A DNA stretch of 64,000 nucleotides from the NCBI GenBank assembly GCA_947625625.1, contig CANQPC010000003.1, forward strand, positions 1,278 to 65,277, given 5' to 3'. This document shows, piece after piece, positions 10,209-11,195 of this stretch; within the stretch, counting starts at the first letter, position 1; the number at the start of each line of letters is the position of its first letter. Under the pieces are notes generated by a model that saw nothing but the letters and a program-made list of their open reading frames with translations, ran no database searches and was not told the origin of the DNA. This DNA is from an uncultured Bacilli bacterium. GTDB taxonomy: Bacteria > Bacillota_I > Bacilli_A > RF39 > UBA660. The translations under genes and the position numbers were made by a program.

Positions 10209-10234
10209 AAAATTATTTCCCGGGAAATAATTTT
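10209..10234. promoter_or_regulatory. NBS-type palindrome 1 (putative Noc/ParB-family binding site)
   Basis: Perfect 26-bp palindrome AAAATTATTTCCCGGGAAATAATTTT, 18 bp after the gyrA stop. It contains the 16-mer TATTTCCCGGGAAATA. Confidence 0.75.
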
Positions 10235-10304
10235 CGTACATTTGTTTGTTTAAATTATAATTATAATTATTTTTAGTGTTGACCTGTTGATAGATTATTT
10301 TTTG

Positions 10305-10367
10305 ATTATTATTATTATTATTATTATTATTATTATTATTATTATTATTATTATTATTATTATTATT
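10305..10367. repeat. (ATT)21 microsatellite
   Basis: 63 bp of uninterrupted ATT. The homologous position in the other two repeat units reads AATAATTATTATC, which is only about 3 ATT units. Confidence 0.95.
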
Positions 10368-10460
10368 ATATTTTAATATTTTGATATGTATTTTTAATAG
10401 TACTGACTTTATTTTTAATATATGGTTTATTTGGGAAATAAATTTTATCTTATTTTAGTA

Positions 10461-10482
10461 AATTATTTCCCGGGAAATAATT
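10461..10482. promoter_or_regulatory. NBS-type palindrome 2
   Basis: Perfect AATTATTTCCCGGGAAATAATT. Confidence 0.75.
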
Positions 10483-10588
10483 TATATCTTAAAATATGTT
10501 TTTGAGGTATTTATTTAGAATAAGGCTATTCATAAATGGTATTTTAAATTAGATATAGTGGCAGTGTGTTTTTGCATTTGCGAATGAG

Positions 10589-10608
10589 ATTATTTCCCGG
10601 GAAATAAT
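10589..10608. promoter_or_regulatory. NBS-type palindrome 3
   Basis: Perfect ATTATTTCCCGGGAAATAAT. Confidence 0.75.
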
Positions 10609-10800
10609 TTGTACCTTAAAATATGTTTTTGAGTGTATTTTTTTATTACCCTGTTGATAAATTATTTTAATAATTATTATCGTGAATATATTTTAATTTT
10701 TTTCCTTTAAAGATGATAGGTATGTATTTTTTAATATTCTTAAGTTTATTTTAGAAAATATGCGATTTGTTTGGGAAATAAATTTTATGTATTTAGAGTA

Positions 10801-10822
10801 AATTATTTCCCGGGAAATAATT
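10801..10822. promoter_or_regulatory. NBS-type palindrome 4
   Basis: Perfect AATTATTTCCCGGGAAATAATT. Confidence 0.75.
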
Positions 10823-10926
10823 TATACCTCAAAATATATTTTTGACGGTATTTTTTGAATATTGCTACTTATAAATATTATTTTAAATTAAATATTTTGG
10901 TAGAGTATTTTTGTATTTGCGAATGG

Positions 10927-10948
10927 AATTATTTCCCGGGAAATAATT
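10927..10948. promoter_or_regulatory. NBS-type palindrome 5
   Basis: Perfect AATTATTTCCCGGGAAATAATT. Confidence 0.75.
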
Positions 10949-11139
10949 TGTACCTTAAAATATGTTTTTGAGTGTATTTTTTTATTACCCTGTTGATAAA
11001 TTATTTTAATAATTATTATCATGAATATATTTTAATATTTTTTCCTTTAAAGAGATGATATGTATTTTTAAATATTACTAACTTTATTTTAGAAAATGTG
11101 CGATTTGTTTGGGAAATAAATTTTATGTTATTTAAAGTA

Positions 11140-11161
11140 AATTATTTCCTGGGAAATAATT
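11140..11161. promoter_or_regulatory. NBS-type palindrome 6 (one C>T change)
   Basis: AATTATTTCCTGGGAAATAATT. Confidence 0.6.
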
Positions 11162-11195
11162 TACATACATTTGTTCGTTTTTAATATTTTACTTA

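Follow-up and report, generated by a model that had tools for sequence, protein, structure and literature searches.

The nucleoid occlusion protein Noc and the partition protein ParB are the textbook example of a duplicated pair that has diverged both in DNA specificity and in the distribution of its binding sites, few origin-proximal parS sites being read by ParB and many scattered Noc-binding sites (NBS) by Noc. In Bacillus subtilis, NBS are scattered singly around the chromosome, the terminus region excepted; in Staphylococcus aureus, they occupy 41 loci over the origin-proximal half, Noc spreads 8–10 kb around each NBS, and it restrains DnaA-dependent initiation. Specificity is set by four residues, Q173, K179, K184 and R201 in Noc and R173 and G201 in ParB; a single lysine at position 179 or 184 is enough to make the protein permissive, parS binders always carry R173, and Q173 together with K179 and R201 confers NBS specificity (Jalal 2020). 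The main N-terminal domain of Bacillus and Geobacillus Noc is preceded by a 10-residue amphipathic membrane helix, helix α2 and a loop (26 residues), DNA-loaded B. subtilis Noc binds the membrane in a CTP-dependent manner, and the substitutions R89A and N121S abolish CTP binding (Jalal 2021). Here we describe a locus in a stretch of 64,000 nucleotides from an uncultured Bacilli bacterium (contig CANQPC010000003.1, positions 1,278–65,277; hereafter the window) in which sites of both types are packed into the single spacer between gyrA and tadA. We read this spacer as a composite platform near the origin onto which two ParB-family proteins load, a reading to which we assign a probability of roughly 0.6.

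The 16-mer TATTTCCCGGGAAATA occurs exactly at 10214, 10464, 10591, 10804 and 10930, and a sixth copy at 11143 carries one C>T change. With as many as two mismatches permitted, nine matches are found in the window; the expectation by dinucleotide-preserving shuffling of the 64-kb sequence is 0.05, and none of 100 shuffles reached nine. All nine lie within 5640–13633, and the remaining 50 kb of the window holds none. Copy 1 (10209–10234, with the 16-mer at 10214–10229) is a 26-bp perfect palindrome located 18 bp past the gyrA stop codon. Next come the flank motif CGTACATTTGTTTGTTT (10235–10251, plus strand), a degenerate form of a CAAACA-WW-TGTTTG palindrome that also follows the NBS of sister species, and an (ATT)n microsatellite (10294–10380, about 30 copies), beyond which begins a 339-bp tandem repeat (10382–11163; 2.3 copies and 88% matches by Tandem Repeats Finder). 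In each repeat unit, an NBS remnant is accompanied by a type A and a type B NBS, both intact, and by a single DnaA-box-like 9-mer. Copies 2 (type A, 10464–10479), 3 (type B, 10591–10606), 4 (type A, 10804–10819) and 5 (type B, 10930–10945) are exact, whereas copy 6 (type A, 11143–11158) has its C>T change in the CCCGGG core, with the flank motif CATACATTTGTTCGTTT (11165–11181) behind it. The spacings between neighbouring NBS within the repeat are 127, 213, 126 and 212 bp. The sequence GGGAAATAA, found at 10433, 10773 and 11111, lies 31–32 bp upstream of alternate NBS copies and is an NBS from which CCC has been deleted (TATTTGGGAAATA). The right flank ACATTTGTT(T/C)G is common to the first and last copies, the two 49-nt versions being 86% identical. 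An earlier note made from the letters of this DNA had described five perfect copies and one C>T copy within about 950 bp, lying inside longer palindromes, two per tandem unit of about 340 bp with alternating spacing, with half-sites some 30 bp upstream of alternate copies and a related flank bounding the array on both sides; the same copies and positions are recovered here, the palindromes reach 26 bp, and the half-sites prove to be the CCC-deleted remnants.

The earlier note had also identified the motif as a Noc-binding site. TATTTCCCGGGAAATA corresponds to the published NBS 16-mer. The assignment agrees with the description of the NBS: the palindrome has the core ATTTCCCGGGAAAT and, set beside the adjacent parS sites, is changed precisely at half-site positions 1 and 6, the two that distinguish NBS from parS in Jalal 2020 and that are read by residues 173 and 201. 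Three further NBS lie outside the spacer, a solitary one with a single mismatch (TATTTCTCGGGAAATA, 5640–5655) at the 3' end of recF just upstream of the gyrB start, and an exact pair (13537–13552 and 13618–13633) inside the dnaX coding sequence. By a hand reading of the coordinates, the recF and dnaX copies all appear to be read in one and the same frame, giving I-S-R-E-I; 27 codons separate the dnaX pair, which probably lies in the variable linker of tau. In every variant NBS seen, the CCCGGG core contains one transition, C>T or G>A (window 5640 and 11143; in related loci, designated by L numbers, L003 18937, L005 19195, L014 19169, L015 14427, L016 14136 and L054 16866), a pattern that would fit deamination of methylated cytosine if CCCGGG or CCGG is methylated in these organisms. 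A role of CCCGGG as a restriction–modification target was set aside, with no search made for such a system, because conservation extends into the flanks and because the specificity residues of the protein described below match.

Directly after the NBS block, eight parS-type sites TGTTNCACGTGNAACA are found at 11196–11937, against 0.08 expected. They start at 11196, 11322 (one mismatch), 11463, 11557, 11712, 11817, 11861 (one mismatch) and 11922, and part of this array is held by a 260-bp tandem repeat (11358–11849). The gene of the small bacterial signal recognition particle (SRP) RNA, ffs, lies within it on the plus strand (11625–11711; Rfam RF00169, 54.9 bits), with a parS site directly at its 3' end. 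A decayed duplicate of ffs on the same strand (11376–11462), with no Rfam detection, occupies the first copy of the 260-bp unit; the repeat has duplicated ffs along with its parS sites, and the SRP core GTCAGGGGCGGAAGCCAGCAGC has become GTCAGAAGTAGAAGCTAGCG in the upstream copy. The spacer is bounded on the left by gyrA (7621–10191, plus strand; NCBIfam NF004043, 1148 bits) and on the right by tadA (11956–12381, plus strand; NF008113, E 3.7e-30, 104.9 bits, under the curated cut-off of 150). The layout of the window is therefore gyrA, six NBS, eight parS with ffs, tadA and dnaX, with a gyrA–tadA spacer of 1.77 kb. Because the NBS block abuts the parS array, and in many relatives interleaves with it, the feature is a composite ParB and Noc-like locus of which the NBS block is only half. 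The extent given in the earlier note holds for the NBS array itself, and falls short of the three further NBS, the eight parS sites and the SRP RNA gene.

Comparison with relatives, which the earlier note had proposed, reveals that this design is widespread. A DnaA-based scan with one genome per species yielded 74 loci. Nearly all belong to metagenome-assembled genomes (MAGs) of uncultured 'Bacilli' or 'Tenericutes' from the gut, Clostridium sp. CAG:302 and Firmicutes bacterium CAG:321_26_22 among them, and fit the uncultured RF39/RFN20/ML615J-28 group of low-GC Bacilli. Among the 57 loci in which the end of gyrA is covered (window included), parS sites follow gyrA in 54, with 3–18 copies, and NBS in 31. 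The parS sites are packed at one fixed intergenic locus, as tandem repeat units over 0.5–2.5 kb, and ffs lies inside the spacer in nine of ten relatives checked. The usual order places NBS at the gyrA-proximal edge and parS after it ('Npppp...'), the window reading NNNNNNpppppppp. In L044, 13 NBS and 12 parS alternate (NpNpNp) with a repeat length near 80 bp, L027 carries four NBS at a spacing of about 74 bp followed by 12 parS at 43-bp spacing, and L072 has three NBS in the spacer. The contigs of the window's nearest relatives (91–92% DnaA identity) end at the recF/gyrB junction, so the comparison covers the spacers of the other loci; the right ends of three independent Logan contigs from nearest relatives (L091, L092 and L094) lie about 80–87 nt into gyrB, just past the recF-embedded NBS, which may mark an assembly break point.

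A metagenome scan for contigs with two perfect NBS 16-mers 116–146 bp apart, with no other criterion, returned 41 matches. Recognisable gyrA–tadA–dnaX–ybaB–recR neighbours are present in 39 of them, and no genomic context other than the gyrA–tadA–dnaX neighbourhood was recognised among the 41. These contigs have 22–31% GC, their GyrA proteins are 53–77% identical to that of the window, they carry 2–11 NBS each, and NBS and parS alternate in 31. Solitary NBS are likewise found at fixed places: copies inside dnaX recur in L086 and L089 (CAG:321 species) and in L104, L116, L118, L129 and L102, and the fixed positions in relatives lie at about –8.5, –6, +4.4, +9 and +12 kb from dnaA. No NBS is present in the 21 kb around the noc-like gene. 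As far as the window and the relatives' contigs show, NBS in this lineage form tandem arrays and occupy a small number of fixed positions no more than about 10 kb from dnaA, unlike the dispersed sites of B. subtilis and S. aureus.

The two classes of sites are discrete. The window and the 74 related loci together hold 347 sites of the palindrome family: 235 pure parS, 107 pure NBS and five single-base variants. The discriminating positions read A/C in NBS and G/A in parS. None of the 347 is a parS/NBS hybrid, and hybrid sites for a ParB–Noc heterodimer were accordingly rejected. The NBS embedded in the recF coding sequence is 99% conserved over 18 species, every wobble position included, as compared with 78% in its flanks; because this coding NBS keeps its wobble positions, selection acts on the DNA of the sites themselves. 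The same observation bears on whether the palindromes are RNA or DNA structures, a gyrA terminator or REP-like elements, instead of protein sites. Perfect palindromes can form hairpins, and the first copy, just behind the gyrA stop codon, has TTTT directly after it. Intrinsic terminators and REP elements are, by comparison, GC-rich stem-loops with a T tract that are confined to intergenic DNA and lack a cognate binding protein, whereas NBS copies lie in recF and dnaX coding sequence with their wobble positions kept. A terminator scan called no NBS copy and only two parS sites, the latter because they are palindromic, and promoter-like sites are not enriched in the spacer (26 versus 21 ± 5), on which grounds terminator and promoter functions were rejected. 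The motif also covaries with a protein of Q-K-x-R type and stays cleanly apart from parS, and we regard a purely structural role as extremely improbable.

The arrays vary rapidly in copy number. Ten metagenome contigs with identical DnaA and 99.6% nucleotide-identical gyrA have spacers of 556–1658 bp; gap-free assemblies of such identical-DnaA strains hold 6, 8, 9, 9, 10 and 12 parS copies, whereas the single post-gyrA NBS is fixed across them. After gyrA, sister species of the window carry one NBS (in most of them) or two, and the CAAACA-WW-TGTTTG palindrome stands 20–50 bp further on. In the window, this flank is retained in degenerate form at both ends of the NBS block (10235–10251 and 11165–11181). 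Judged from this retained flank, NBS copy 1 is the ancestral post-gyrA site and the block is an internal amplification of that single site, in agreement with the local amplification suggested in the earlier note. The flanking palindrome is itself associated with NBS: the pattern AWAC-W4-GTTYG has 32 matches in 1.66 Mb, and 14 of these are no more than 120 bp away from an NBS, where chance would give about 1.3 (for example L002 19079, L008 19266, L013 19308, L024 14979, L067 18999 and others). It resembles the Firmicute LexA (Cheo) box CGAAC-N4-GTTCG.

This history raises the question of whether the array is neutral, only the single post-gyrA NBS being under selection and the six-copy block, with no function of its own to add, left behind by slippage or unequal recombination in an AT-rich spacer prone to repeats. 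The one or two NBS in the spacers of close relatives, the ancestral flank common to the first and last copies (which implies a recent insertion or duplication of the interior), the 88–89% identity of the repeat units and the range of 6–12 parS copies among identical-DnaA strains are all in keeping with such an origin, and the (ATT)30 microsatellite and the decaying ffs duplicate indicate a generally unstable spacer. Multi-copy NBS are, however, found in many separate lineages (13 in L044, four in L027, three in L072 and 2–11 in each of the 41 metagenome loci), and the intact NBS cores of the window are perfect while the remainder of the repeat units diverges. We consider a neutral array rather unlikely. 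Under the reading of the spacer as a loading platform, the six-copy block would be a strain- or species-level expansion of one post-gyrA site through tandem duplication of the 339-bp unit.

The arrangement of the two site types likewise bears on a possible insulator, in which the Noc-like protein at the gyrA-proximal edge would stop parS-loaded ParB clamps from sliding into gyrBA, recF, dnaN, dnaA and oriC. Strict polarity is indeed observed in the 23 loci of the DnaA-derived set with 'block' order, in which NBS lie on the gyrA/oriC side and parS on the tadA side. A one-sided boundary does not fit the 36 loci in which NBS and parS alternate (five DnaA-derived and 31 metagenome loci), nor the 18 loci with a parS array and no NBS at all, and more NBS are located beyond the parS array, inside dnaX. 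Such a boundary function is improbable.

The lineage encodes a protein that matches the NBS-type sites, as the earlier note had supposed in postulating a Noc-like ParB paralogue. In relatives with sufficient flank, a gene with the Pfam domains ParB_N and HTH_ParB lies downstream of trmE–mnmG–rsmG and is followed by spoIIR–mntP (the order trmE–mnmG–rsmG–noc-like is seen in L044 and L075–L080). Its location downstream of rsmG (gidB) is that of noc in B. subtilis. Q173 and K179 are found in every readable copy, and position 201 is arginine except for histidine in L058 and L070 and lysine in L059. The gene is encoded on the same contig as the arrays in L044, whose protein is exactly QKKR, and in L034, L049, L058, L063, L070 and others, with QKxR or QKxH. 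Q-K-x-R is also present in all 118 readable sequences among the 120 nearest homologues in a large protein collection. Within the subfamily (34–35 members), Q-K-x-R is invariant together with G61, E62, R63 and R64 and with E95, N96 and R99, the GERR and ENxxR motifs conserved in Noc of B. subtilis and S. aureus; by these residues, the protein is predicted to have the CTP-binding site of Noc.

Family and structure comparisons place the protein next to Noc. Its top NCBIfam match is nucleoid_noc TIGR04285 (285.7, 300.6 and 269.3 bits), a model on which the lineage's ParB scores 237.6 bits. It has the domain layout of Noc, with ParB_N, a helix-turn-helix and a C-terminal dimerisation domain, and its closest solved structures are Noc structures (7NG0, 7NFU and 7OL9); the DNA-binding domain superimposes on the Noc–NBS complex 6Y93 with a TM score of 0.89–0.92. 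In the AlphaFold model of an abundant representative, P0012 (345 aa, QKSR), the folded N-terminal and DNA-binding domains extend to about residue 200, followed by a disordered linker (207–297) and a C-terminal domain consisting of a confident helix and two strands, as in Noc. The linker differs from that of the known proteins in being 90–300 residues long, disordered and rich in P, Q and N, the upper length of about 300 residues occurring in more distant relatives.

P0012 is identical to CDE40223.1 of Firmicutes bacterium CAG:321, and its locus reads parB(–) parA(–) | rpmH rnpA yidC jag trmE mnmG rsmG noc-like spoIIR mntP. Whereas soj–spo0J follows noc in the known system, parAB here lies about 8 kb from the noc-like gene on the other strand. 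The clade's ParB (L075 196–1074) reads GKSRSHITNTLGLLNLP...SMGHAR, giving R-T-N-G at the specificity positions, and carries an N-terminal LGKGLEELF motif; its ParA (Soj) has 270 residues. From the P0012 locus and the residues of its proteins, the window's clade has Soj, a parS-type ParB and an NBS-type paralogue. The same spacer design is seen in L017, a CAG:321-named MAG whose DnaA is 85% identical to that of the window. The link between noc and dnaA in the window's clade rests on the CAG:321 name match, the record names of P0012 and P0212 having no overlap. The sites in the window and the proteins in its clade together resemble described ParABS centromeres, with the parS consensus near oriC, a canonical ParB (R173/G201, N-terminal ParA-binding motif) and Soj/ParA. 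The locus differs from them in its dense tandem units of strain-variable copy number, and in that its sites abut or interleave with the predicted sites of a second ParB-family protein.

The N-terminal region sets the protein apart from the Noc of Bacillus. Only 8–16 residues precede the PNRFQPR motif of the Noc-like proteins, residue 5 of P0012 aligns with residue 26 of 7NFU, and the first structured element of the model is a β-strand (residues 7–11), so that both the amphipathic helix and helix α2 are absent. This bears directly on classical nucleoid occlusion, in which a high-avidity array would tether the origin to the membrane via Noc and block Z-ring formation there. The motif is that of an NBS, the protein is of Noc type, and membrane binding of DNA-loaded Noc in B. 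subtilis is CTP-dependent. The known membrane helix is nevertheless absent, and NBS are clustered around oriC and not scattered, as far as visible. Because of the missing helix, classical membrane-tethered occlusion is very improbable, and the membrane-tethering site envisaged in the earlier note, an idea that depends on the B. subtilis N-terminal helix, is not borne out in this lineage. A role in the organisation or regulation of the origin region is the reading that we prefer; by analogy with S. aureus, it might include restraint of DnaA, or co-assembly with ParB.

Five DnaA-box-type 9-mers lie upstream of dnaA (914–1035), as a putative left half of oriC, and the gyrA–tadA spacer starts about 9 kb downstream of this cluster. 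DnaA boxes flank dnaA on both sides in L083 (five and three), and no DnaA boxes are found at the parA|rpmH junction in the window's clade. Since the DnaA-box clusters are found at dnaA, we place oriC there, with GC skew as a caveat that is taken up below. The spacer itself is also rich in DnaA boxes. Counting TTATCAACA, TTATCCACA and TTTTCCACA, the spacers of 41 loci contain 2.0 such 9-mers per kb versus 0.29 per kb elsewhere (oriC excluded), an enrichment of about 7-fold, and 101 were observed in these spacers as compared with 2.5 ± 1.5 in shuffled spacers. In the window, TTATCAACA occurs on the minus strand at 10652–10660 in the first and at 10991–10999 in the second 339-bp repeat unit, and further DnaA-box-type 9-mers are located at 9996 and 10056. 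L083 has five such 9-mers on the same strand inside its parS array (19632–20373). These predicted boxes could serve DnaA titration or Soj–DnaA regulation, or their presence may reflect no more than duplication of the repeat units that contain them. In their enrichment, with one box per 339-bp unit, the spacers resemble DnaA-box clusters and titration loci of the datA type, and differ in that the predicted boxes are interspersed with parS and NBS.

Rearrangement has altered the origin region within the lineage (L044 1–8000, L075 1–3000 and L083 1–10000). The layout of L044 is the classical one, noc–rsmG–mnmG–trmE lying on the minus strand beside HerA–dnaA, and the window's clade has polA–fpg–...–HerA–dnaA. 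A gene for a 586-residue HerA/DUF87 (FtsK-like) ATPase lies directly upstream of the DnaA-box cluster of dnaA in every relative examined (window 117–881, running off the left end; L013 7977–9737; L044 7979–9739; L081 7976–9736) and keeps this place even where the rest of the upstream region is rearranged. Between dnaN and recF, the window carries a ComK-family gene at 3878–4390 (PF06338, E 3.8e-23), which occupies the same place in relatives (L081 12832–13287).

Taken as a loading platform, the spacer would work as follows. The eight parS would load canonical ParB, which has the N-terminal ParA-interaction motif and a Soj/ParA partner, to form a partition complex, and the six NBS would load the Noc-type paralogue with Q173/K179/R201, which would then spread as described for Bacillus and Staphylococcus Noc. 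Both proteins would bind at their sites and act as CTP clamps, and multiple tandem sites would raise the loading rate and the local occupancy. With CTP-dependent spreading over several kilobases, and with single NBS in recF, in dnaX and upstream of dnaA, the Noc-like protein might cover the whole oriC–dnaA–gyrA region.

Several observations weigh against this reading. The Noc-like proteins are without the N-terminal helix needed for the function of B. subtilis Noc. As compared with the described Noc proteins, position 184 is mostly N, S or T instead of K and a few members have H or K at position 201, and their scores of 269–301 bits fall below the curated nucleoid_noc cut-off of 315. Relatives such as L038 have the Noc-like gene and 18 parS sites with no NBS in the spacer. 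No ParB-family gene is found in the window, in its source contig (65,967 bp, on which its DnaA is P0153) or in the 10 kb upstream of dnaA in close relatives; the search for a paralogue proposed in the earlier note thus succeeded in relatives, where Q-K-x-R could be read, and found none on the window's own contig. We infer the presence of a noc in the window's own genome from the same-contig evidence in relatives together with the CAG:321 name match. Finally, the GC skew in the window's clade stays positive over 10 kb upstream of dnaA with no change of sign, polA and fpg lie there on the plus strand, and the strand and skew switch occurs instead at parA|rpmH; in L044, by comparison, the skew changes sign just upstream of HerA–dnaA.

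A more specific form of the proposal is that a Noc repurposed by loss of the helix and gain of the disordered linker co-assembles with ParB on the NBS/parS arrays as a two-protein centromere and origin organiser. Such a complex may also restrain DnaA-dependent initiation, in view of the DnaA-box enrichment of the spacer and of the NBS copies surrounding oriC, and segregation and initiation control would then be joined in one locus of about 2 kb. We put this forward only tentatively.

A parallel to the tandem design comes from plasmids. The F plasmid centromere sopC consists of twelve 43-bp repeats. Like such iterated centromeres, the arrays described here are built of head-to-tail units each with one ParB-type palindrome, as illustrated by the 12 parS at 43 bp in L027 and the units of about 80 bp in L044. 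They differ in being chromosomal, in lying between housekeeping genes and in carrying two site types for two readers. In the literature searched, we found no description of NBS arrays, as the earlier note had presumed for a dense NBS array, nor of NBS/parS interleaving or of a Noc without the helix. The components are known, unlike the architecture and the protein variant.

In these bacteria, the sites of the two paralogues share one fixed locus, often in strict alternation, and the Noc paralogue is without the element that defines the mechanism of Noc. If the platform reading is true, the lineage would provide a natural system for the function of a Noc-type CTP clamp without membrane binding, and it would allow cooperation and competition between two ParB-family clamps on shared DNA to be told apart. 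The arrays are also a compact natural form of an orthogonal tag pair (ParB–parS and Noc–NBS), of a kind already engineered for the imaging of loci. On the same condition, the reduced genomes of the RF39/RFN20/ML615J-28 group may have compressed segregation and organisation of the origin, and possibly control of initiation, into one hypervariable spacer.

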